This document shows positions 1 to 55,136 of a stretch of DNA of 64,000 nt, in pieces. The position numbers were made by a program, and so were the translations under genes. The notes under the pieces are model-generated. The model worked only from the letters and a program-made list of their open reading frames with translations. It had not been told where the DNA came from and made no database searches. This stretch comes from Amoebidium appalachense (Eukaryota > Protista > Ichthyosporea): positions 4,356,259-4,420,258 of the forward strand of contig CAVNZM010000002.1 in NCBI GenBank assembly GCA_963693365.1. The letters are read 5' to 3'. Position 1 is the first letter of the stretch. The number at the start of each line of letters is the position of its first letter.

Positions 1-79
1 TCCAACCTCCCCCCCACCCTCCCACCCCCGACCCCCGACCCCCCCACCCCCCATCACCCCCACACACACACACACACAC

Positions 80-6088
<6,009 letters not shown>

Positions 6089-16257: not shown

Positions 16258-16799
16258 ACCACTTCGTCACCCTGATGTTGTAGATTAAGCCGCAATATCC
16301 GCTAAAAAAAAAAGCTTCAATTAGTTGCCCCTCATGGCCAACACCCACACGAAAATATACACGGACACAAACGTGTGCACAACATCACTGTGACCTGCAC
16401 TACTATTCGTACTTGGGCGCGGAGGCTCTGACTCGCACTGTCGCTGATATCAGCACAGACACGTGTATGTACCCCCCCTCCCTCCCCCTCCCCCCCCCCC
16501 AACCACCCACCCGCCCACTTTCTTCAAAACATCGCACACACATGGGAACCACCACGACCGACACAACTGCCAAAAATTAAAACTATGGGCCAGCAAAAAA
16601 AAAAGAAGAAGAAGAAGAAGAAGAAGAAGAAGAAGAAGAAGAAGAAGAAACAGCAGCATGAGTATGCAATCTACCACTTGTTGAAATATGTATGTGTGAG
16701 AAGAATGGAAACAGTCTTTAGCCAAGTTAAACCCCACAAACGGACGATTTTTGCATTTCCGAAAACTTGTAAATACAATGCCCTTTTTCTTATAATCCT

Positions 16800-17770
16800 T
16801 TAGTCCAGATGCACCCAGAACCACAGTGTGTCGTCCACGACATACTGCCGCTGAGCATCAAGCAGGGTGCTGTGGCTGATGAACTCGGGCCAACCGTAGC
16901 CCTCCTCGTTGTCTGCTTGTGGCTGGTTGATCTCGATGAAAAAGGCCTTCGTGTCCGGTTGGTTTGCGGGTCCAGGGTGAGTGCTCTGTGGCTAAGTTGT
17001 GCACTATGATCGAGTAGCGTGATGGTTGCTTTTCGGTTGAAGGGCCACTGAAGAGAGTCATCCTGAGACCCAGCCTGTAAATCGAAATAGACGGATATGT
17101 ACTTCGTCTTGGTTTCTTCGTTCACACCATTGAAGTCTAGACAGACTTTAAAAGAGTACCCCGAAGGAAGAACTGCCAGCTGGGAGTACGTGTAGTCAAT
17201 CTCTGATGCCTGGTTAAATTTGTAGCGACATTGCCCGCACTGACCAATGCTCCTTGTGTGAGCCGTGCACACCCACGCCGGTCATCCGGGAAAAACACAC
17301 GGACAGGGAGCCTCTCTTTTAACATTTGGTGCCAACCCACCCAACCATCATCGTCAGCCGCTGTCTCGCCGTTGCCTTCAGAAATTGCCAAAATAATGTC
17401 CCGCCGGTGCACGCCCTTTGGCTAACCGACGATTTTCTTCTGCAAGAAGAAGAATATGTTCGGGCATAGAGGCAGAGAGGTGGGTTTGGATGTCCTTGCG
17501 GGCCACTTGGGCCGGACAGCCCCTGACGGGGCAGGGGAGAATGGTGTTGGGGCAGTCGGCGGTGCGGTGACTATCCAACTTATTACGGCCAAAACCCAGG
17601 CCGCAGCCACACGTAGTCTTGCAGGCAAAGGTCACATGAGCTGCATCGGGAAGCACAATTTATGTGTAACTTAGTGTCACAGTAACGGCCCAATGACATG
17701 ATTAATCGATTAATTAGGGCCAAACTAACCCTGATTTCTTTTCCAACCTCCCCGGGCCCCCCTTCCTCCC

Positions 17771-17809
<39 letters not shown>

Positions 17810-18021
17810 ACCACCACCACCACCACCACCACCACCACCACCACCACCACCACCACCACCACAATGAAGAATTCGAAGAAGAAGAAGAAGAAGAAGAAGA
17901 ATTCGAAGAAGAAGAAGAATTCGAAGAAGAAGAAGAAGAAGAAGAAGAAGAAGAATTCGAAGGAGGAGGAGGAGGAGGAGGAGGAGGAGGAGGAGGAGGA
18001 GGAGGAGGAGGAGGAGTAGGA

Positions 18022-18052
<31 letters not shown>

Positions 18053-18408
18053 AAGAAGAAAAAGAAGAAGAAGAAAAGAAAAGAAAAGAACGAAAAAGCA
18101 AAAGTAAAAAGTATCGAGGAAAAAAAAAAAAGAAAAAGAAAGGAAAAAAGAAAACGAGATCGCCCCCATCCCCCTCCCCCCCCCCCCCCCCTTCCTCCCC
18201 TCCTCCCCCCACCCCCCCTCGCGGGGAGCCCCACCCACTCCCCCTCCCCCCCCCCCTCCCCCCCCCCCCCCCCCCCCCCCAATCCCCATAACAAAAATAA
18301 ACATTTTCCTTCACTGACGGAATAGGAACCAGCCAAGATCATGTGGCCTTATAAATATGCTCTCTCCTCAGCATGCTCCTCCCTCGGTGTTATCCCACAA
18401 AATTTAAG

Positions 18409-18443
<35 letters not shown>

Positions 18444-18527
18444 CCCCCCCTTTCCCCCAACCCCTCCCCCGGGGCCCCAATACTTCCCCTTTCCGTGCCC
18501 TGCCTCCCTCTTCCCCTCCCCGCAACC

Positions 18528-18570
<43 letters not shown>

Positions 18571-19248
18571 ACCCTTCCCCTTTCCCCGGACTCTGTAAAA
18601 AAGTCACCGGGTCCGCCCGGTTTGGTTGCATAGGCAAACTTATACCCGGACGTTAGCGTTCATGACTTTATCACTACATACATATATCTCGCAAATGCAA
18701 GATTTAGTCCTATATCGATATCATGATAGGTTCTGAAACGCAAGCCCCACCTTTTAGGTTGGAGACTCTCAGCTCTTGGTCGCGCAGGTCGCACTTCACT
18801 TGACGGTACACGCACTCTCCATGGTGGCGTGCACAGTCTCGCCGCGCAAACGTCACACCCCACCCGTCGTTTAAACACGCCACTTTCTCCTACAGGCACG
18901 TGTTCATGTGCGCCTCAAGGTCCCCCAGTTCACACACCTCCATGCACCCGTCAGCTTGGTTGTGGAAGGGAATTTGCAACGATAAAAAGATGCGTGCGAA
19001 TGCCAAGTTGATGACTTGGGGGGTTTGACGCAGTCTCTCGGAGTCCAGGCTCGAGGGTTTCGTTGCACGTAGGGCATATCTTTTCGATAGCAAAGGCTCC
19101 GTTGATGCAGGGTGCACAGAAGATGTGGCTGTTCTTGCAGCCAAAAACCAGAGGATCCCGGGGAACATCGAGACAGATTGCACACTGCCACTTTTCGGCT
19201 GAGGGCTGGTGCACAAACCGCTCAATGTCGTAAGGCTTTGCCTGCCAT
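16800..19248 (-). pseudogene. TRAF-family pseudogene (RING, TRAF zinc fingers, coiled coil, MATH) with one intron (~17671-18750)
   Basis: RING CAICLDVPRDPLVFGCKNSHIFCAPCI..CPTC; ZnF GCMEVCELGDLEAHMNTCL*EKVAC and HRTADCPNTILPCPVRGCPAQVARKDIQTHL; MATH SGYSFKVCLDFNG..YISVYFDLQAGSQDDSLQWPFNRKATITLLDH, then in another frame GYGWPEFISHSTLL..YVVDDTLWFWVHLD*. In-frame TAG at 18890-18892, several frameshifts, and lost Zn-ligand cysteines. Confidence 0.85.
17760..18290. repeat. Compound microsatellite poly-C/(CAC)n/(GAA)n/(GGA)n inside the TRAF intron
   Basis: Directly visible. The (GAA)n array is punctuated four times by GAATTC. Confidence 0.9.
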
Positions 19249-21449: not shown

Positions 21450-22358
21450 GGGGATATCTGGAGGAACACCGTACATGTCAGTTTGAAGTGACCGATGGGG
21501 TGGAGGAATACATAATTTGTTCTGCACATTATCTCATGGGCTCGATGTTTTTCCAAGCCCCGGGGGCAGGATGCAATTCCAGTGTCCGGGGGGATAATTA
21601 TATCAATTTGCCCAGAAACCTTTTCTCATTTCGCTCGCTCTATCATTGAATGGCATATATACCCAGCCTGTTTTTTCGGCTTGGTAAATGCTGGTAATAT
21701 CGATTTATGGTCACTTACAGCACCTTACGTGTATGCACCAAATCATCGTCAACAACATCTGAGCATCACTGAGTACTATGAAGAAAACTTCAGAAGTCGA
21801 CGTTTGGCCAAAAATGTACACAATCCAGGCATGGGCCAGCAGTAGCGCCCAGAATGTGCGTCCCGTTGCACCATACAGGCCACTCATATCAAGTTTTTAA
21901 ATAGGATATTTCCCATATAAGCTTGATGATTGGTGTATCTAAATAGAGTAAAGTTGCCGCCGCTGCAAGTCATGTACGTCGTTCGGCGGATTGCAGCGTA
22001 AGGAGCAAACACGAGTCGTTGCAGGGCTGTTCACTTGTCTGTGTGCCTGCTTTCACGTTGCTGTACATGGCGGGGAGTGCTGTGTAATAGCTATGAAAAA
22101 AGAGGGGAATATAGGATATAAAACGGTTGAATTGCCTTGCCTCTCAGTTGATATGTTAAGGTTACTGCTACTTGGTGCTAGTTCTGTTTTTCAAGTGTCC
22201 ACTCGCACTGAAACCTTTTAGTGTGTGACCTTCTTCGTTGCCCCAGACTGCAACGGGAACAGTGATATCTCTTACCAGCACAGCCAGTTAGGCTGGTCAC
22301 TGGCTTTCGAATCAGAGAAGCACAGAAATTATCATTACGCTCTGTGCTGCTTGCAAAC

Positions 22359-23582
22359 ATGGAGCTAGAGATACCCGTTATCAAAGCTGGTAGGTGGACC
22401 TGCGAAGAAAACCACACGCGTGCCTAGCCTGTCAACTTGTTGTACACAAACTACGCCTGTCGTTTGTGTACATTTTGTGCACATCAAACCATCCACCCTC
22501 ACTGGAAAGCTGATTACAGTTATGCACAAGAAGTAAGTTTTCAACTATTATGCCTTTTATTTTCATTTCTTTTGTAGGAGCCTGTAAGAGCTTCATTTTG
22601 TTCTTTCTTGATTCTTTATATTGAAATCCTCTTGTGTGTACCAATTTGCTCACATAGATTTACCTTACCTCACAGGGCCTCCAGAGGAATCACTTTGGCA
22701 GCTACGCTCTATGTGGGAGCTGGCTGCAACGGTGCATTTTCTCAGCATCTTCAAACCATTTCTGCATTTGGCACAGGGGTTCTCCGTAAAGGTGGAGGTA
22801 AGTTGCCCTCGTGTGCACATTTCTCCCCCCCCCCTCTCCCCCCCCCCCCCCCCCCCCCCCACCTTCCCCTTGTTCTCAAAACTTACATGCGATTGCTAGG
22901 ATATTGAGACTGCGCTGTGTGACCCCGAGTCCCTGCTTATGGCCGAGCTGCACGTCAAGCTGCTGAGGGCACTACTGCACCGTGACGACATAACATACAG
23001 CCACGAGATCGAGTCCAAGTATGTCCTTCAATCCCCGTGTCCTAGGCTCCTTTATGTTGTGGTGCATGTGGCCATGCTATAGCAGAATGGGGAAATGTGC
23101 ACACATTATAAAATTGCCACACCACAAGCTTTTGTTCTACACACTAGCATGTACATATAAGCAGCAGCTCGGTATTATGACTCACACTAAGTGTCCCGCT
23201 AGAGTCCACAGCAAGCTTATCACCACTGTTCTGTGGCAAGACATCCTTGTGGAGGTGCTTAAAGGTGAGTGCCCCGGACATGACCAGGTGTAGCGTTCAT
23301 AACGGCTGTTGATGTTCGCTGCCCCCCCCCCCCCCCCCCCCCCCCCCCTGCCCAGTGAACCCCGCGCCACCCCCACATTAAAAGCACACCCCCTCTCCCT
23401 CTCCTGCAATTACTTTTAGGACTTTGTTTACACGGTCCACCTTTCAGGATGGAAGTACGACCTCTCGTGTGCATGCATGCTTTACTGCATTTGCCAGCAC
23501 GGCTATACACTAGACGAAAGGCGGTGCGCAACCCAGGCTATACACCGTTATCCCCCGCTCCCCCCTCCCCCCCCCCCCCCCC

Positions 23583-23622
<40 letters not shown>

Positions 23623-26600
23623 TTCCCGAGTTCACACACACACACACACACACATACACACACACACGTGTGCCTACCAACCCATCCGCCCAGCACATCT
23701 AGTTCCCTCTCCGCTAGATGGTGATAAGTTGCCGAGCGCGCGGTGCTTATCGTGTAGCCATAGTGACGGCCACTCGCCATTAGCAGTGCTTAGCGAGCTC
23801 GGTTGTGGTGCTTACAAAACGTGTTAGAGCCTGTGGTAAGAGCGGTACCTTAGGTGATTCGGAAACTATGAGCTAACAATAACTAATGAGAGGACGTGTG
23901 GTGCAGAGAGAGGAGACAACTACAATCCTCTGGCTGAGGCTCTCTACGTGGAGATATCACTGCAAGATCGGGTATGGGCTGGTTACGGTTGCTTGTTTTG
24001 TGCTCTGCTGGTTGCCTCAGATCTGTTTGGTTTTTTTTCTGTGTATGGGGCCGCATGAGGAGGTCTAACAGCCTGTTCTTGCAGATGAAGATTCTTCATC
24101 TTCTCTGTGAGCTTCTGATGACAGGTGGGTGATAACCACTCCCCTGTGTGCTGTTATTAGTTAATCAGTTAGTGAAACGGTGCCAGATTGCATCGGCTTC
24201 CCAAAATACATCTATGCTTGCAGTGTGGTTCTAGCTGTGCCTTTGCTGGTGTTGGGCCCCTGCCAATTTCCTGGTAAACCGGGTTTAAGGTTGGCCGCAC
24301 ATACTGACCACACACATGCAGACGAGACCCTTCTGAACTTTGTGGAGGAGAAAGAGCTGGAAGCAGATGCTATGGTAAGTCCCTGTGTGTTTGTGCTTAG
24401 CTGACCATAATGTGGTGGTCTGGAAATGGGGATAATTGCCGTTTTGCATGTTTAAAATGTTGTTAACTGCATGTGTGTGTCCTCGAAAATGGGAACATCT
24501 GCATATGTGCTTTTTGGATAATGAGAATATCTGCTTGTGTGCTTACTGTCCTTGCCCAGAACGAGTATATCTGTCTGTGTGTGTGTGTCTGTTGCCCCAC
24601 ATTCGTGGCCGTACCAACTCCCAGTGTTTTTATGTGATGCACTTACACGAAAATTAAATAGTAGTGCCCAATTGGTTTGGTGTGCGCATGGGTGTGTTTG
24701 ATGCTTAGTTCCACGGGGATCCACCCACCCATATTTGTTTTGACATGTGCAGATGTGTGTGAGTGGTCGCGGGGGGGGGGGGGGGGGGGGGGGGAGGGGG
24801 TAGAACAACACATGTATTTAAGTATAAAGACCAGGACAACACCCACCTTGCCCTCCTATGAGCTGGATTGGAAACGAAGAACCAACACATGAACTACGTG
24901 TTGTCTGGCTATGGCCTCTGCCTGACTGGTACCATTTGCAGAGAGGGCGCAGCATAGGCACAGACAGCCACGGCAGCATATACTGGTACTTTGATGGTAT
25001 ACCCCCCCCCCCTCCCCCCCCCCCCCCCCCCCCCCGGCCGCCGCCCGGTGAATTTTGCATTTCTGTTTTGTGCTTGTCCGTGGTGACTGCTGTACACGCA
25101 TCGCAATGGAGGCCACATTCTATACATTTCTAATCTGTGGACTGGCAAGCGTCACGGTTGCTGCTCTGCCCAACCAAGTGATTGCTTGCGCATTAGACTT
25201 AACATACTTCTTAGTGCTGCATACCTAATGCCTACATATCCTGCTACATGCACACTCTTATGCTCATGTTGCTGGACCTAACATGGGCACACAGATCAGC
25301 GGCTGTACCGGGAGGTGCCGGTAGTGGAGGCCGGCAAGGGCCGCAAGGCCACCCCCACCCCCAAGAAGAGGCAACCGGGCAGGGCACCGTCACGGTCATC
25401 GGCACGGCGCAGGGGCAGGCAGGAAGAGGATGAGCCGTCAGACGATGTACGTGTTCCCTGCAGCCCTACGAGCATATTATGTCCAGGGGTGACGTGTGTT
25501 ACTTTATCTAAATACCTTAAATTTTTCAATAATACGATTCAACTTTTTTTTGCATGGTACGATACGTTTCCGACCATGGTATGTGGATAGTGTGCATGGT
25601 AATGATGCTTCATAGAATAATGTCCGGAAATACCAATTCAGCCCATAGGAAAATTCATATACTGAAAAATTACTCTCCAAATTTCGTGAATTTTCGGCCC
25701 TGTTTATATCCCGCTGCAGCAGGAGTGCAATTTCTCTGTAGTTTGTTTTAATATATGCCCCTGGTATTCAGTCCTTCTATATCGTTTCTGCGAGAATGCA
25801 GTTTTTCACCCATGCAAATGTTCCAAGTCTTCCTGTTGAGGGCATGCAATCAATTCCCACTGCCTGCTGCATATCACCGTGAGATTCTAAGGCTGGGCAG
25901 GGACATTTTGCCGATGCTTTTTGGGTGTGTACTGACGGACACGTTTGGGGGCAGGAGGGGGCAGCACCCAATGGGGTGGACACACCCCGGCCGGTGGACT
26001 TTACGGTGGTCAGGCCGGAAACGGCACAGTGGCCCCACCTGGTCGTCAAGAAGAAATACCAGGTGCGAGCAATGTGGGGAGAGGGAGGAGGAGGAGAGTG
26101 GGGGGGGGGGGGGGGGGGGGGGAGATGCATGGGTGTCTTTTCGGGGGGGGGGGGGGGGGGAGGGGAGGGGGGGATGGTGTGTGGCAAGGTGGGGTAGTGC
26201 TGGTAGGTGGTGGGTGGAGGCGATCGTGGTAAGGGAGGGTAATTGGGTGAGGTGGGTGTGTGTGTGGGGGGGGGGAGGGGGGGGGGGGGAAGTGGGAATG
26301 TATAAGTTTTGGTGTGTGGGTGTGGGGAGGAGGGGGGTCTTTTTTGTGTGTGTGTGTTTTGGGGGGAGGGGGGGAGGGGGGAGGGGGCTGGGGAAGGCGG
26401 GGGTATGAAACGTAGTGTGTGGGTGGGTGCGAGTGTGTGGTTAAGTGCAAAAGGTGTGTGTGTATGTGTGTGCATGTGCGGACAATGTAGTGGATTGTGG
26501 GAAGAGTGCAAGCCAGTATATGATGTTGCCTGTGGGGTTGGTGTGTGTGTGTGTTTGGGGGGGGAGAGGTGTGGGGGGGTTGGTTGGTTCTGACTGTGGG

Positions 26601-27110
26601 GTGAGGGCAGTGGGAAACCGTGTGTGTGACGTCACGAGATTGGGAGGCCATAGTGGCATGGCTGGCAAATCCAAAGGGTCAACACGAGACTGATCTGGCA
26701 AGGTGCAGACCTCCCCCCCCCCCCCCCCCATGCAACCGGGCATGGTTGCTCTGTGTCGTGCATCTGTAAGCACACGCGTTTGTCGCTGCACTGCATTAGT
26801 TTGCACACACATCTTCACCGTTTTGCTCACCTTGCTTGCATAAGCAACCCTGCTCGTCTTTGATCAAGACGGGTTGACCCACCCAAGTTCAGTTGATGCT
26901 GCTGTCTGAGTTGGAGCGTCGTATATACGCGGGCTAAGGGGTCGAAACTCAGACGCAATTGATGACTTGGGCCCTCCCTGAGGATGGGCTCTGCTTATGA
27001 CGCATACTGTGCGCATGGCTGATGCTGCATAGTTGAATGTTTGCCTTTGCATGTGTCCTGCACCATGCTTCTCATCGTGTATGCGTACTTCGTACTGTGT
27101 TCCGCATTCA

Positions 27111-27159
<49 letters not shown>

Positions 27160-27334
27160 AAGCATAGGCTGTACTCACTGCACACCATCTGACCTTTTTT
27201 CCTTATGTCCTTTTTATAGTTCCTCGGACCCCCTCCCCCCCGCTCCCCGCCCGGGGACCCCCCTCCTCCTCCATGACACACACACACAGACACACACACA
27301 CGCACACACATCTGTCTACGCACACACACGCACG

Positions 27335-27376
<42 letters not shown>

Positions 27377-27836
27377 ACCACCGGCCCCTTACACATATCT
27401 TGCTCTCGGATGATCTCCTCGCTGTCTCGGTAATCTCAAGCACAGCCATGTGCACGTGCATGCACTGCACGTGCATTTGTGGGTGTTCACAAGCACAGCC
27501 ATGTGCACGTGCATGCACTGCACGTGCATTTGTGGGTGTTCACAAGCACAGCCATGTGCACGTGCATGCACTGCACGTACATTTGTGGGTGTTCACAAGC
27601 ACAGCCATGTGCACGTGCATGCACTGCACGTGCAATTGTGGGTGTTCACAAGCACAAGCATGTACACGTGCCCCTGTCTGTGACCTTGTAGCACCCACAT
27701 GCCCTTTTTTTTGTGGCCCTGCGTGCCTGCCCATGTACTGACCTGAATGAGCAGTGAGCTGACGGTGATCAGCGAAGCTGTCATTCCCCCCCTCCAGGTA
27801 ACAACCCCCCTCCCCCCCCCCCCCACCACCACCACC

Positions 27837-27886
<50 letters not shown>

Positions 27887-27996
27887 CAAACACACACCTC
27901 GAATCCTGAGTGTCATAAAGCAGAGTTAGCGAGAGCGCATACGTGTTTGGGTCCGTGCAAGGCTGGCAGGGACTGTAGATCGTGAGGAGTGTGTTT

Positions 27997-28027
<31 letters not shown>

Positions 28028-28523
28028 GGGAGGGGGGGGGGGGATGGATGGGTGGTGGAAGATGTTGGAACGTGTTATTGGTGGGAAGAAGGAGGAGGAA
28101 GGGATGAATGTGTTTGTGTGTGTGGGGGGGGGGGAGAAAGGGGGAGGGGGAGGGGGAGGGGGTAATTGAGCCAACAGGGAGGATGGGTACAAAGCAAAGC
28201 ACATGGTACATACAGTAACCTCACCTTTGTGTTGTGACAGGCACGGGAGAGGGAGATCGAGAAACAGAAGTTGTTGGATGCCATCCCAAGAAAGCGCTCT
28301 CACCGCATACAACGCAAGGTGGGTGGGGGTGTGGTTTGGGCAGAAACATGTGGATTGGCTTTGTGCAAGTTCTGTGGGCGATGAAAATACAGAGTGCTAG
28401 GTATTATGTGGGTGCAGGCGTGGTGAGGTGTGGTGGGGCGGCACTCGAGGAGCTATGTGTGCGCTGATGGCAGGGCATAGGCAATGCAGTAGCGTGAGAG
28501 AGAGAGAGTGTGTGTGTGTGTGC

Positions 28524-28575
<52 letters not shown>

Positions 28576-28769
28576 ATGTATGCATGCACTGACACGGAGG
28601 TACAGGAGATCCAATCGCAGGAAGATGAGAGGCTGCAGTTTTTGCGCAAGGAGGAGGAGCGCCTACGTAAGGTGCAGGAGGTACGTGTGGGTGGGGATGG
28701 GGGAGTGTGAGTCTTGAATGGGCAAGGGGGAATGGGGAGGAAGAGATTTGTGGGTGGTGGTGGTGGCGG

Positions 28770-28807
<38 letters not shown>

Positions 28808-29154
28808 GGTGTAGGGTGCATGTGTGTGAGGGGGGGAAGGTGCAAGTTCGCCTTTTGGGGAGGGGAGGGGGGGGGGGGAAAGGGGGGGGGACGGATTGAG
28901 GGCCAGGGAGGTGAGTGCTTGTGTGTGTTGAGGAGTGAAGAGGAGGGGTTGTGCATGGCTGTGTATGTGAGTGTGTGGGTGGAAGGAAGGGTAATGGGGT
29001 GGGGGATTAACGTGCTCTAGTCTGTGGGTCTTGGTTTTCGGGTTTTTGTTTTTTCATTCAGATATTTCTACTTTTTTGGAGGGGCCCCCACGGCGGGGGA
29101 GGGGGCGGGGGAGTGGGCTTAAGAGTTTCTTTTTTTTTTGGGTGGGTGGGTGGG

Positions 29155-29185
<31 letters not shown>

Positions 29186-29561
29186 TCCGGGGAGAAGGGG
29201 GGGGGGAGGGTGTGTGTGTGTGGGGGGGGGGGGGGGGGGGGGCACATCTCACAAATGACTGTGTGCATGTTGATAAGGAGGGAGAAAGGCGGAGCAGAGG
29301 CTTCGGGCATATGACTAGGTGTATGGGTGTATTGTTTGGGGGGGAGGGGGTCTGGCACATTGGTGGATGCTGACAGGCAGGGCATGGTACTTGGCTGGGG
29401 GTTGCAGGAAAAGGCAAGGAAAGAGAAGGAAGAGAAAGAGGCGGCAGAACGGGCAGCAAGAGAGAGAGCGGCAGAGCTTGCTGCACAGAGGGAGAGGGCA
29501 CAGAGGCTGAAGGAGGAGCAGGAGAGGGTGGGTGGTTGTGTGTGTGTGTGTGTGTTTTTGT

Positions 29562-29594
<33 letters not shown>

Positions 29595-30264
29595 TATTCC
29601 ACACTGTCCATATGACACTGCCAGTTCTGGTGTCGGTTCGTTATTTTTTCAGTATGTTATTTTTTTCCTTTTTGGTCTTTTTCCTCTTTAGTTCTGGTGT
29701 CGGTTTAAAAGGGGGTATGGTGTCGGCTTGCTATTTTTCAGTATGTTTATTTTTTTCCTTCTTGGTCTTCTTCCTCTATATTTCTGAAATTTTCTCTCTC
29801 TCTCTCCCTCTCTCTTGCTCTCGCTCTCGCTCTCCCGCGCCCCCCCCCCCCCCCCCCCTCCCTCCTCTTACTCTCTCTCTCTCTCTCTTTCTTCCTCCTA
29901 TTTTCTTTCTCTTCCTCTCCCCCTCTCTGCTCTCTCTCTCTCTCTCCTCCCGATGGTTAGATAAGACGGGGGGGGGGGGGGGGGGGGGGGGAGGGGAGGG
30001 GGGGGGAAGGGTACACCCCTTTCACGGTCCATCACCATGCCGTTCCTGGCCATCCTTTTTTCGCCCCCTTACTCAACCCATTTGGCCGACATGCTTTTTG
30101 TGCGCAGGAGCGGCAGCGACGGCAGCTTGAACGAGAGCAGCGATTGGCTGAGAGGGAGCTGCAGCTGCGGCTGGAGAGGGAGGCTGAGGAGAGGCGCAGG
30201 CTGGAGAGGGAGGAGCGCCTGAGACACAGGAAGGACCCGGCCAGGAGCAGGAACACGTGTACGT

Positions 30265-30314
<50 letters not shown>

Positions 30315-30449
30315 GGGATGGGATGGGAGGATGGTGCTACCGAGGAGGTAGGGGGGAGGGGGGGAGAATTGGTTGGTAGTGCATGGTCGACAAGCTCGAC
30401 CGGGTGCAGGGAGAAGATGTTTGTTTTTCTTTTTCTTTTTCTTTTTTCC

Positions 30450-30480
<31 letters not shown>

Positions 30481-30495
30481 GTCTTCTAAGGAAAA

Positions 30496-30529
<34 letters not shown>

Positions 30530-30595
30530 CCAGTGTTGATGTGCAAAAGCCCCCTGCTACAGGGTATATGGTTGGATGAAGGTTTTTTTTTTTTT

Positions 30596-30626
<31 letters not shown>

Positions 30627-31402
30627 TGGAAGTGGTGTGTGTGTGTGTGTGTGTTTTGTTGGGAGTGGAACCGGGGGTTGGTTGGTTGGTGCTGATGGGT
30701 TTGTGGTGCAGCTGATATCGACACAGCCGAAGAGGCCAAACCTGCTCCAATCCCAGAGCCAGAGGCACCCCCAAAGAAGAGGAGGAGAAAAGGCAAGTGG
30801 TGATTGTGGTGGTGCAAACAGTGTTATTGGTGCAAGCAGTAGGGATGCGCAGTAGGGATTGTGCAAGCAGTGGTGAGGGTGCATGGGGTGGTGATGATGC
30901 AAGCAGTGGTGAGGGTGCATGGGGTGGTGATGGTGCAAGCAGTGGTGAGGGTGCATGGGGTGGTGATGGTGCAAGCAGTGGTGAGGGTGTATGGGGTGGT
31001 GATGGTGCAAGCAGTGGCGAGGGTGTATGGGGTGGTGATGGTGCAAGCAGTGGTGAGGGTGTATGGGGTGGTGATGGTGCAAGCAGTGGTGAGGGTGTAT
31101 GGGGTGGTGATGGTGCAAGCAGTGGTGAGGGTGTATGGGGTGGTGATGGTGCAAGCAGTGGTGAGGGTGTGTGGGGTTGTGATGGTGCAAGCAGTGGTGT
31201 TGGAGGTATTCCAAGTTGATACGTGCAGACACGTGAGCTTGTGGGATGAATGTTTGATTTCTTGGTGTAGAATGGGCCAAGCAGTACTGCCTGCACTCAC
31301 TATGCTTTGCTGTGTGGCTTGTTGGTCGTAAGGTGGACTGCCAGCTGTGCGGCCATGTGCTTGTGACTGGGGTGAAAGAGAGTTGGTGATGGTGGTGGTG
31401 GT

Positions 31403-31437
<35 letters not shown>

Positions 31438-31671
31438 TGGGATGCATGTGAAGGTGCTTTAAATTTGAAGGACTGCCTGGTGCTGGGATTTTTTTACATT
31501 TTTTTTCAGGTTGTCTGGAAACTAACTGGGGCCGTGCAGCCAAGGAGAAGAAGGGGAAGGAGCCAGCGAGTGGGTCGGACACAGAGGATCAGGCAGCCGA
31601 AACCAACACAAAGGAACGGCCAAAGAGGCCAAAGGTGTGTGTGTGTGTGTGTGTGCGCGCACGCGCGCATC

Positions 31672-31702
<31 letters not shown>

Positions 31703-33998
31703 GCGCGCGTGCGCGCCGTTCTCGCAGTGGTGGATGTTGCGTATCGGCAGAGGGGGAGGAGGGGGGGGGGGGGGGGGAGGGGAGGCACAGTCCAATATCG
31801 GCAGAGATGGGGGTGCACAGTCAGTCAGAATGTTGCCGTTGCACATGCTGTCAATGCACATGGTTGGTGGGTTTGCGATTCCGTCCTTATACGCTGTGAT
31901 GCAAGTTGTCCTGGAGCATCATGCAATGATGGTGGTAGGTGGTATGGGTGCGTGTAAGGCAGTCTACACGTAGGTGTGGATTGTTTTGCTTGTCTTCCTA
32001 ACATGAATGGCATCTTGCCTGTGTTTTTCATCATTTTATCCTGCACCTTTTTCTTAACGTGATATCCTGTTTATACTTCTTTGTATTATATCACTTATGT
32101 GTTTCTGACCTTAAACCATGTACGTACCTCCTAAAGTTCAATCCCGCTGGATCCTGTGTGTTAAGCAAGATCATATGTGTACATGCTAACATATCGTTGT
32201 TGCAGCGGCCACGCAAGAGGCCACGGTTCCTCGTAGACGAGCCAGGCAAGCCACGGCGCTACTATGTGTTCTCGACGGCCGTGGCCAATGCTGCTGCACT
32301 GGCTGTCAGGGAGGGCCGGTGTGCAAACATCGTGGACTACCATCTGGAACTGCAGGTGTGTGCACGTACAGATGGTTCCAATCAGATTTATCTCCTTCGC
32401 TACGTTGTTTGCTTGACAGGCAGCTAACCATGAAAGTTTGGTTTTGTTTTCTCTGATGAAAGGTGGTTTTGATGTCTTGTCTGGCGGCACGACTTTAACT
32501 TGTACAGCCAGTCATTGTCTGCGGCACTAGTTTGCAGAGCTTTGATGTCTACAACATGCTTTTGGGGGAGGGGGGGGGAGGGGGTGGGCCACATCGTGAC
32601 AAATCTAAATCTAGTTTGCGATTCACCAATTATTAATGCCACTATGCTAACCATCCGTTAGTTGCTGTTTTATGGGTGCTGACGTCATCTGTGTTGGGTT
32701 GACAGCAACGCGCACAGGCCGGGGTTACAGCCGGGCCAACAGCAGCAGACAGCCGCAAGGGTAAGCCGCAGGCACGGGGCACAATCACAGGGCAGAAACT
32801 CCCCCGCAAGCTCAAGAAGCAGGAGGTCTGGGCACCCCCATCAGGCCAAAAGCCCAACGAGACAGAGCCAGTTCCAGACAAGAAGGATGCAACGGAAGCA
32901 CATCAGCAGGTGAAGGAAAAGACGGTGAGGCAGGAGCCAGCCACACAGCCAAAGCCCCGCAGGCCACGCCCTGCTGAGGGTGCCAAGCAGACAGCTAAGG
33001 CCGCACAGAAAGTAGCCGCTGACGCCGCTGCGGCCGCAACCAAAGGGGCAACACAGGCAGACACCACGGTACAGCGCAAACCAAGCAAGAGCGCACCACA
33101 ACCAGCACAACACCCTGCCCAGCAACAGGCACCCGCCCCAGCCCCCATTCCTACCGCTACCCCTGCACCTGCAGCGTCACCAATAGCAGCACCAATATCG
33201 GCACCAACCCCAGCAGCAGCAGCGGTAGGCGGTGGTGAGCAGAGACCAAGACAACCATCACTACCACATGGGGTTATGCAGCCGCAAGATTCACCCATGG
33301 GCCCACCGCAGACACAGAACCACTACCGGGAACTGGGTGCACACATGTCCCCCCCCATGCAGGGCACAGGCCTAACCCAGCACATGCCCCACAAGCTACC
33401 CCAAGGATATGCCCAGCCCGGGCCATGGGACCTTGGGCCCATGCTACCTGGTGTTCCCACCAGCCGGGCAGGGAGCATGGATGCACCCTATGGCCACATG
33501 GGGCACGATCTGGGCCGCCCTTCTCTTCCTTTTGGTCTGGTGGATAGCCCGCAACCCTACTACCCACTAGGAACACCCACTCATCGTCTTAGTAGTGGGG
33601 CCCAGCAAGGGTACGGGCTGGGTATGGGCTACAGTGCCCAGCCATACATGCACCAGCAGCACTATGGGGGCTGGCCGGGTGCTGGTGTGGGGGGGAGCAC
33701 CCACCCACTAGCTGCGTCGCCACCGCCGCCGGCTGCAAATTGGGCAAGAATGGACCCTGGGCACGGCTACATGGGCCACAACCACATGCCTACTGCTCAC
33801 CCGCTGGCATATGGCAACCCGAGGGACCCGGCTGGATGGGGCCAACAGGTGCCTGCAACCATGCGAGAGCAGGGGAGGGGGCAGGGGGCAGGGGCAGGCA
33901 ACTGGGGTATGGGTATGGGGGATGCAGGCCTGGGGGGTATGGACACGAAGGATATGCAGTTGGTGGCTCAGCTGTCAAAGATGAGACGCATGCCCTGA
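22359..33998 (+). CDS. DDT-WHIM1-WSD chromatin protein (CECR2/RSF1-like ISWI partner) with a coiled coil, a BCL9-HD1-like motif and a P/G/M/Q-rich tail; about 19-20 exons, last exon 32706-33998
   Basis: Spliced blocks [96 protein letters not shown] and PRKRSHRI parallel the CECR2/RSF1 N-terminus as recalled. No bromodomain or PHD exon was found. The exon structure at 26063-27753 is uncertain. Confidence 0.85.
26790..27113 (+). repeat. Dispersed intronic repeat family, copy 1 (~320 bp)
   Basis: Collinear with the reverse complement of 62822-63157 (CATAAGCAAYCCTGCT, AAGACG, GGGGTCGAAA, ATGACTT, TGGGCTYTGCTT, CTGATGYTGCATA, GCATGTGYCCTGCACCATGYTTCTCATCGTGT) and with 59420-59575. Confidence 0.8.
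27437..27672. repeat. 53-bp minisatellite, about 4.4 copies
   Basis: Unit CAAGCACAGCCATGTGCACGTGCATGCACTGCACGTGCATTTGTGGGTGTTCA starts at 27437, 27490, 27543, 27596 and 27649. Confidence 0.95.
30861..31199. repeat. 36-bp intronic minisatellite, about 9.5 copies
   Basis: Unit GTGCAAGCAGTGGTGAGGGTGYATGGGGTGGTGATG. It lies in an intron of the DDT gene and generates spurious repeat ORFs. Confidence 0.95.
32260..32346 (+). other. BCL9/Legless HD1-like (Pygopus PHD-binding) motif within exon 32206-32355
   Basis: [29 protein letters not shown] versus human BCL9 HD1 as recalled, VYVFSTEMANKAAEAVLKGQVETIVSFHI: 15/29 identical with no gaps. The exon is a clean phase 0-0 AG/GT exon, in frame with its neighbours. 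Confidence 0.78.
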
Positions 33999-36103: not shown

Positions 36104-52836
<16,733 letters not shown>

Positions 52837-55136
52837 GGTGCAAATGTTTGGTTTCACTGTGGTGTTGTGGCCACACAGTCGCTATGAGAGGCCTCTTCAC
52901 GTGCTGCACTAACTTATTAGTCTTCAAAGTGCCAACGAATTATCGGAATATATAGAATACGGTACTAAGCCGAGTTCAGAAGTACCGAGGGCAAAAAAAA
53001 AAAAAAGTCAAATACTAAGCACCACTACTACTGTCACGGCAGACATGCATTTGTGCTCGGCCGCAGAGTCTGCACGGAACATGTACAATTACCGACGGGG
53101 AACCAACGAACGCGTGCTGGGTAATTACTCCCTGCCACATGTATGTGCAAGCATAGGCGAGTGTGCTATGATGGTGAGCCGTGCAAGGGCCTGACCGTCA
53201 ACAACAGACGGAGGGTGCCCCGATTAAATTTGGCAGCTTTTACAAGCTTAGGGCCTCCGAGCATCGATCGACAGTTTTTCGACTATGTTAGGTAGAATAA
53301 ACAAAGGAATGCCAGTTATTAAATCGTGATTAGGCCATGTAGGCCATGGGCCACTGGCAAGAAAACAAATGAAAATAGAAGTTACATTCTGGCCCATTCA
53401 GAGGGGACAACATATTCAGGAGTTAAAGCTGATATGGCTCCCAAATTAAAACATGCTATAATAAAGGTTTTCTGCGGCTTATATATTAATCCGCTGTATA
53501 TATAATTGTAAATACATAGAAGATTACATTGAATAACAGGTCAAAATTTTAAACCCCCCCAATAATAATCAACTCGGGTGATTCACCAGCAACCAGGGCT
53601 CCATATTATGTGACAAAAGTCGTTTTCATCATCCTGCCCCGGAAGTTCAGTGTGACTCGCCGGCTACAGCTGCAGTAAAAACACAAGCGAATAAAATTTT
53701 CGAAGGCGTCTAAATCAAAAGGCATACACAAATTCACAAGCAAATATACATGTAACATGTACAAGCACGCACACACGCGCAAACCTGCGCACACATCCAC
53801 ATGCATATGCATGTTCGCACACGCTCGTATAGCGTACACCTTTAAACGTACACACACGTGCACGCCTAACTGCTTAAGCAAGTGCTACCCGTGAAACACG
53901 TACGCGTGGTTACACGTGCACGGTACATAAACGGCACCGGGACCGGTCCACCCGATATACGCACACACACATGCAGATATATCGTATACAGGCCTGCGAT
54001 AATAATTGATCAGCACATGTGTACACATCACACACATGATAACAATTGTGTACATACCACATGACACACACCGTGACACCGTATCTCTGACGTGTGAGTC
54101 AGTGACCCAAAACTTCCCTATTAATTAGTTCGGCAAGCAAACAGAGGCAAACGCGTTCGTACTACGTTCTGAGAGGTACTGGGACAGTCGATATATCTAA
54201 TTCGAACCCTTCTTGAATCGAGAAATTCGACAGGCCTGCAGAGGCTTCCTATTGGCTGCCCTATCGAAAATAAATTCCCAGTATGCATTCTCTAGATCTA
54301 GACCTAATCATCGGAACCACTCTCTCTTCTTGTATACGTGTACACGTTGGCTTCGTTGCACACACCCAGAAAAACACAGATATTTGAAATATGATGCTTT
54401 TCTACGTGAATATCTATTCACATTGCCCATGTTAGTGCATTCGAATAATAGCGTGGTGGCTGTTCACATTCCTCGTGATATTCCGATGAACTATGCGAAT
54501 CTGTAGTCCCGCGCATGCGGAATCCTTACGATCGCAATCAGGACGCCTGACTCACCTACAAGTGTTAGCACTCAACCACTGCACACTAGCAATTGCCACG
54601 ACTTGCACGCATATATCTCTGTTAGTAAAATAAATAGCAACATGTAGAACAATCTCAGCCATATGTAACACTTTGTCTAGGCCCACCAGGCATTTCAACG
54701 TTTGGGAACATGGTTCCCTCTGAGAAGTTCGGCCGGGTATGAGCCACCTGTTACGTAATCAATTGTGTTCGGTGCAGGCAAAGCCAATGAAAACAGCCGA
54801 TCGCTGGCGGATCGGTGGTGTTGACAGCTGACGTCATTGCCCGCGGTTTCAAGTGCCAGCAGGCAGAAGTAGCAGCCACGTCTCGTACCACCGTACCTGG
54901 CCTACCTGGCCTGCGAAAGGCCTTTCGAATTCTGTGTGCGAGCCACCGAACATGGCCCCCAAGCTTTGCTAATCGCTCGAAACTGTGATCACACGACATC
55001 CTTGTGTGCATTGTCCGTTGGTTCTCTAAGAAGTTACCACGGCGCGACACCTACCAGTTTTGGCTTATACGTGGTCTTCTGATGTGAGCACGCATCGAAC
55101 ACGCACAAGCAGTCAATTGTGTAGAAGTAGGGCAGC

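Follow-up and report, generated by a model that had tools for sequence, protein, structure and literature searches.

BCL9, BCL9L and Legless are adaptors of the Wnt enhanceosome. Their HD1 binds the PHD finger of Pygopus, HD2 (PF11502) is a helix that binds beta-catenin, and HD3 is a helix that binds LDB-SSDP. CECR2, a bromodomain protein, is a subunit of the ISWI complex CERF. According to the accessible text of two papers, DDT proteins bind the SLIDE domain of ISWI (PMC10396365) and the DDT domain alone is insufficient for binding (PMC11950633). In flies, an invariant threonine of HD1 is a key contact with the Pygo PHD finger (accessible sections of PMC3851687). Those sections, together with the corresponding parts of PMC4571689 and PMC2959043, trace Wnt enhanceosome components back to placozoa and Pygo to sponges and ctenophores, and give no origin for BCL9.

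Here we describe a gene within a 64,000-nucleotide stretch of genomic DNA (the window) whose protein carries an HD1 behind a DDT-WHIM1-WSD core. The protein resembles BCL9/Legless in the strand, threonine and helix of its HD1 and in the long Pro/Gly/Gln-rich tail downstream of it; unlike BCL9/Legless it has no significant HD2 or HD3, and most BCL9 proteins tested have no DDT domain, though a DDT head is also found on a nemertean protein (Tubulanus P0213) and at an animal metagenomic locus (L042). With CECR2 it shares the core and the charged coiled coil behind it, whereas in CECR2 a bromodomain occupies the slot in which the window protein has HD1. Fungal DDT-WHIM-PHD proteins (Borealophlyctis P0090, Bifiguratus P0091) have the same core but a Bye1/MLL5-like PHD finger in cis and no HD1, and plant DDR4-type proteins have the same core with neither PHD nor HD1. 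We consider it reasonably likely that this combination of a DDT-WHIM1-WSD core and a genuine HD1 represents an ISWI subunit that docks a separate PHD reader, and a pre-animal form ancestral to BCL9/Legless.

To identify the motif, we performed sequence, profile and structure searches with the HD1 exon. The exon is 150 nt long, encodes 50 stop-free residues and is bordered by AG and GT; the motif covers 29 of these residues. All six PDB sequence matches (E ≤ 10) were HD1 chains of BCL9, B9L or Legless, the best at E 0.00093 with 15 of 29 residues identical and no gap, which confirms the in-frame BCL9/Legless HD1 exon that a sequence-only reading of this DNA had reported. That reading had suggested a BCL9 HD1 profile as a check, and we built one from 23 animal proteins with Pfam BCL9, leaving out window and coral sequences. 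The window ORF scored 41.0 bits (E 1.3e-11 across 1,764 window ORFs), far above the best of 20,000 shuffles (10.6 bits) and the second window ORF (6.7 bits). An AlphaFold model of the exon (mean pLDDT 80; helices predicted at 24-35 and 42-49) superposed on B9L with an rmsd of 0.6 Å over 29 residues. Rows 1-7 of its Foldseek search were all HD1 chains, with E values of 0.2-5 that are not significant on their own because the piece is so short. The exon matched no family in Pfam and none of 17 candidates in a word-indexed search with the exon alone, and in the ESM Atlas all matches to the exon and to P0213 were sub-0.9. The threonine that contacts the Pygo PHD finger in flies is retained. Taken as a sequence match, the motif is almost certainly homologous to BCL9-type HD1.

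The 20-exon gene model is open from ATG to stop. We examined contigs from two runs (X1 and X2) of one sample in one study, for which the RNA label was guessed, no run listed with this sequence being catalogued as RNA; the spliced joints show them to be transcripts. These contigs contain 11 GT-AG joints across 22389-29408 and the GT..AG joint 32355/32706, which was found in both X1 and X2; junction 31634/32206 comes from consecutive pieces of one contig. A further contig of 1,753 nt starts at 22250, covers the DDT, WHIM1 and WSD exons, agrees in its coordinates with the 20-exon model at all 10 checkpoints, and has its end placed at 31554 in exon 18, overlapping the HD1 contig. Splicing of HD1 to the DDT exons through both flanking junctions, as first proposed from the letters alone, is therefore supported by transcript contigs, with the refinement that the exon ending at 31634 follows a GC-AG intron. 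The seven junctions not listed as joints, 31634/32206 among them, are based on contig coordinates, on loose ends and, as far as residue 365, on P0002, a EukProt transcript-derived protein that agrees with the 994-aa model through that residue. From window position 28681 onward, the P0002 isoform continues past exon 14 into the following intron and stops before HD1; judging by this sequence, it is a retained-intron or partial transcript with a DDT-only product.

Table 1. Features of the DDT-HD1 gene, in window coordinates.
Feature	Coordinates	Strand	Details
Whole gene	22359..33998	+	20 exons, 994-aa ORF: DDT-WHIM1-WSD, charged coiled coil, basic linker, HD1, long low-complexity tail
DDT domain	22676..23018	+	exons 2-3 (22676-22797, 22900-23018), aa 11-91; joints in transcript contig
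Exons 4-7 with WHIM1 helix	23203..24374	+	helix at aa ~125-148; joints in transcript contig
WSD motif with basic insert	24942..27797	+	exons 8-12: 24942-24996, 25295-25446, 25955-26062, 26611-26702, 27755-27797
Charged coiled coil	28241..30258	+	exons 13-16; from sequence; long helices predicted, aa 293-372 of P0002
GC-AG intron	30793..31539	+	between exon 17 (30712-30792) and exon 18 (31540-31634); GCAAGT donor; X1/X2 contig loose ends on both sides
Exon 19	32206..32355	+	basic stretch, then HD1; core nt 32260-32346, aa 533-561
Exon 20, Pro/Gly/Gln/Ala-rich tail	32706..33998	+	no significant HD2 or HD3

We next assessed the rest of the protein. Pfam DDT matched P0002 at 27.9 bits (cutoff 22), and WHIM1 (E 0.04), KIAA2026_hel (E 3e-4) and WSD (E 0.0024) matched it under cutoff; the WHIM1 and WSD matches are in the expected order, and these regions align with named CECR2 and fungal members. 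The core is likewise shared with the yeast ISW1a subunit Ioc3: the P0002 model (pLDDT 82) found its best fold match in chain B of the ISW1a entry 2y9z, which we take to be Ioc3 (the source gives the entry title only), at Z 12.0, near the chance range for helical proteins, with an rmsd of 6.2 Å over 233 aligned residues; the next match had Z 7.7. Foldseek with this model returned nothing at E ≤ 0.001, and the PDB, searched by sequence with P0002 and with its profile of 76 sequences, returned coiled-coil or low-complexity matches only. As the sequence-only reading had supposed, the 994-aa model has no visible reader domain by local profiles: the bromodomain profile had no match, and the PHD profile, of the fungal type, scored −1.3 bits on a model with four cysteines only, a difference from RSF1-type proteins, which have a PHD finger in cis. 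The exon 20 tail has no Pfam match, its top score against an HD2 profile was −1.0 bit, and an HD3 profile built from 17 BCL9 sequences found nothing on the window protein. The −1.0-bit likeness to the HD2 core is a faint, non-significant one in the final dozen residues (~33957-33995).

A search with P0002 across 1.84e9 representatives gave Sphaeroforma (E 8e-50) and Creolimax (E 2e-48) as top matches and Chromosphaera third (E 1e-24), with CECR2-type proteins also among the top matches (E 6e-21). Five of the 149 other matches carried HD1 by the BCL9-only profile, namely Tubulanus P0213 (55.0 bits), Chromosphaera P0089 (35.0), P0109 (30.1), Sphaeroforma P0087 (18.3) and Creolimax P0088 (16.4); the other 144 scored at most 1.2 bits and reversed sequences at most −0.6. 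HD1 thus recurs at the equivalent place in three named ichthyosporean proteomes, and its conservation in orthologues, one of the points on which the earlier proposal turned, holds. The invariant threonine is kept in the window protein and in Chromosphaera; it is serine in Sphaeroforma and Creolimax, whose HD1s have further changes and may be relaxed or have a different partner. HD2 and HD3 profiles found nothing significant in the window protein or in four other ichthyosporean-type proteins. In a tree of the DDT core, the window protein grouped with Sphaeroforma and Creolimax (100/97). On the basis of this one gene, the genome is non-animal, as had been thought, and probably ichthyosporean, which would make its source a single-celled organism closely related to animals. 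Ichthyophonus hoferi has a second ichthyosporean DDT protein (P0200), without HD1, which groups weakly with CECR2 (85/83, long branch); this placement is a hint that the split between CECR2-type and HD1 proteins is older than animals.

The DDT-HD1 architecture was also found in animals. A metagenome motif scan yielded 73 loci, all HD1-like once translated, and an HD1 profile search yielded 84 proteins among 7,998 candidates scored. In addition to ordinary BCL9, the corals Pocillopora and Oculina yielded proteins of about 1000 aa with the same order and length as the window protein, from DDT core through basic stretch and HD1 to low-complexity tail. These proteins differ from it in being animal and in having, past HD1, an HD2-like helix that is weak (3.4 bits at best; HD3 not detected). 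They are labelled 'SRRM1-like' or uncharacterised (XP_027037558.1, XP_078367104.1) and annotated with neither DDT nor BCL9; P0002 matched the Oculina protein P0065 at 73.6 bits. Tubulanus P0213 combines a DDT core (221 bits) and HD1 with Pfam BCL9/HD2 and HD3. Locus L042 has an open 9-exon DDT-WHIM-WSD-HD1-HD2 model, a gene model without RNA support, which has three introns in common with the window gene at identical column and phase. In all, three distinct animal loci (L042/L064, L026/L065 and L051) show HD1 and HD2 preceded on the same strand by DDT or WSD exons, the preceding exon in L026/L065 and L051 being WSD; most of the 73 loci offer too little upstream sequence, or contain too many introns, for such a test. 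The DDT core was absent from 26 of 27 animal BCL9 sequences tested. The fusion noticed in a non-animal genome is therefore real there but not restricted to non-animals, and because it occurs in corals and as a DDT head on some animal BCL9 proteins, it appears to represent the ancestral state of BCL9.

Two further HD1 proteins were seen in this survey. P0058 (L036:2940-3071, minus strand) has HD1, a basic low-complexity tail and no HD2, with no DDT exon within 2.2 kb upstream, and may represent a further early-branching member. The Saccostrea protein P0022 is actually a BCL9, with HD1, HD2 and no PHD pattern, although its source calls it 'protein pygopus-like'.

To characterize the slot that follows the DDT module, we scored the 149 relatives with local profiles of nine members each. 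Bromodomains were found in 51, PHD fingers in 27, HD1 in 5 and none of these in 66, without a single overlap; the last class includes many short rows, and only 25 of 58 with a core end extend at least 250 aa beyond it. With six corals and two models added, HD1 was found in 13 of 157 proteins, and its overlap with PHD or bromodomain was still zero, as expected if HD1 replaces the reader. The reader or HD1 lies at a median of 134-213 aa past the core. Names were looked up for 22 of the 149 relatives, and the result does not extend to choanoflagellates or filastereans; among the relatives with names, PHD fingers occur in three proteins, all fungal, and bromodomains in CECR2 of Amia and in a protein from Lingula. 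None of the six PDB matches (E ≤ 0.01) of the fungal PHD finger is Pygo. This finger instead resembles those of Bye1 and MLL5, so a simple fission of one PHD-HD1 gene is not supported.

Since HD1 stands in the slot of the fungal PHD finger and the CECR2 bromodomain, a PHD partner in trans, as for Pygo, is likely. By analogy, we lean slightly towards a putative HD1 function of holding such a partner. Family knowledge and the predicted fold suggest that the DDT-WHIM-WSD module would bind ISWI via its SLIDE domain; from the architecture, HD1 would dock and buttress the PHD finger, and the partner would aim the remodeller at H3K4-methylated chromatin. A less probable reading, which nevertheless carries appreciable weight, keeps the ancestry and changes the job: HD1 in holozoans would have bound a non-PHD partner or its own protein, and Pygo binding would be specific to animals. 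The drift of the threonine and its flanking residues in Sphaeroforma and Creolimax fits such a history, as does the report, in the accessible text of PMC7434441, that BCL9 roles are largely PYGO-independent in some tissues; in addition, no Pygo-type PHD finger outside animals was found in the accessible open literature. Against it, the window and Chromosphaera HD1s retain the strand and threonine of the PHD interface, and the 157 DDT proteins show the mutual exclusion expected of reader replacement. A short motif scan for the Pygo PHD gave no viral match and one bacterial chance match, in a frame containing stops.

A full DDT core was present in 121 of the 157 proteins, and careful trees were built from 36 and 30 hand-picked rows. 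The DDT-core tree contained clades of fungal PHD proteins (100/99) and of CECR2-type proteins (95/91, no HD1 proteins), and did not recover a single HD1 clade (3 changes; 10% of bootstrap trees). HD1 proteins fell into 3-4 separate groups in the careful trees, in which all deep nodes are weak, and an AU test did not reject one HD1 clade (p 0.287). The window protein lay outside the CECR2 bromodomain clade in both careful trees; grouping the window trio with CECR2 was not rejected (p 0.11), nor was grouping bilaterian DDT-BCL9 with CECR2 (p 0.366). The CECR2-like identity first given to this gene thus stands as to relatedness, with the best tree placing it outside the CECR2 bromodomain clade in a position that is not statistically forced.

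We think the lineage of the window gene is probably ancestral to BCL9, a claim based on sequence architecture common to ichthyosporeans, cnidarians and bilaterians and not on the tree. It is improbable that HD1 is instead an old mobile module, fused repeatedly to DDT proteins, and that the window gene is CECR2-like and not specifically ancestral to BCL9. The scattered HD1 groups and the unrejected groupings with CECR2 agree with repeated fusion; however, it would need one 30-aa motif to have repeatedly entered a single slot of a single family, in ichthyosporeans, in corals and in bilaterians. All deep nodes are weak, the weakly CECR2-grouped Ichthyophonus protein is a separate paralogue, and FastTree placed all HD1 proteins together (89), though with two dictyostelids and one Mucor protein among them. 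It is very improbable that the likeness arose by chance, that the sequence is animal contamination or that the source is an animal, for although the motif is short, its single-sequence PDB E value is just 1e-3 and the lineage is based on one gene, the profile score is about 30 bits above the shuffle maximum, the exon is spliced within the gene, HD1 is likewise placed in three ichthyosporean proteomes, and the core joins Sphaeroforma and Creolimax.

Under the ancestral reading, DDT-HD1 would have been present in the holozoan ancestor, HD2 and HD3 would have been added in animals, and the DDT head would have been lost from most bilaterian BCL9 proteins. More tentatively, BCL9/Legless may be a repurposed ISWI accessory subunit. 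Before animals and before Wnt, a holozoan DDT-WHIM protein would have exchanged its built-in reader for HD1, into which a free Pygopus-like PHD finger would plug; addition of HD2 in animals would then have connected beta-catenin straight to the ISWI remodeller through one protein in early Wnt signalling. That arrangement would persist in the DDT-bearing BCL9 of nemerteans and of certain other animals, and ichthyosporeans would have kept an ISWI-HD1-PHD complex.

The DDT-HD1 architecture is real, conserved and apparently undescribed, in line with the earlier impression that the fusion was new. No link of BCL9 or HD1 with DDT/WHIM proteins was found among the open-literature papers listed, including the accessible parts of PMC5352222, PMC2874024, PMC5575660, 10.1101/2025.01.14.632903 and 10.1101/2023.12.07.570557; this covers open-access papers and, of the domain databases, Pfam. 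Likewise, no open-literature paper was found that treats BCL9, the DDT domain and ISWI together, and 12 of the 16 supplementary files of PMC6040629 contained no match. The accessible part of a preprint (10.1101/2021.11.30.470311) lists a PYGO1/2 orthogroup, whose taxon range is possibly in its supplements. The window gene supplies a candidate BCL9 ancestor, for which living animals provide a sequence intermediate (DDT-HD1-HD2), and draws attention to coral and protist genes that lack annotation and belong to tractable organisms. Two questions become testable: whether the HD1-PHD pair is older than Wnt, and whether Wnt transcription first worked via ISWI.

Finally, we inspected the introns and neighbours of the gene. 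Many of its introns contain long runs of G or C, and tandem repeats were seen by eye at ~27440-27660 (~51 bp) and, within the GC-AG intron, at ~30860-31190 (~39 bp). Exons at 1-5250 on the minus strand presumably belong to a gene resembling SZT2, with no supporting Pfam match. A TRAF-like gene (16793-19247, minus strand; Pfam RING, TRAF zinc finger and MATH) is transcribed away from the DDT gene. On its other side, a minus-strand gene at ~40200-52900 probably encodes a large surface protein, with Pfam GLEYA/PA14 and PAN matches and, by eye, cysteine-rich EGF-like exons and a signal-like start.
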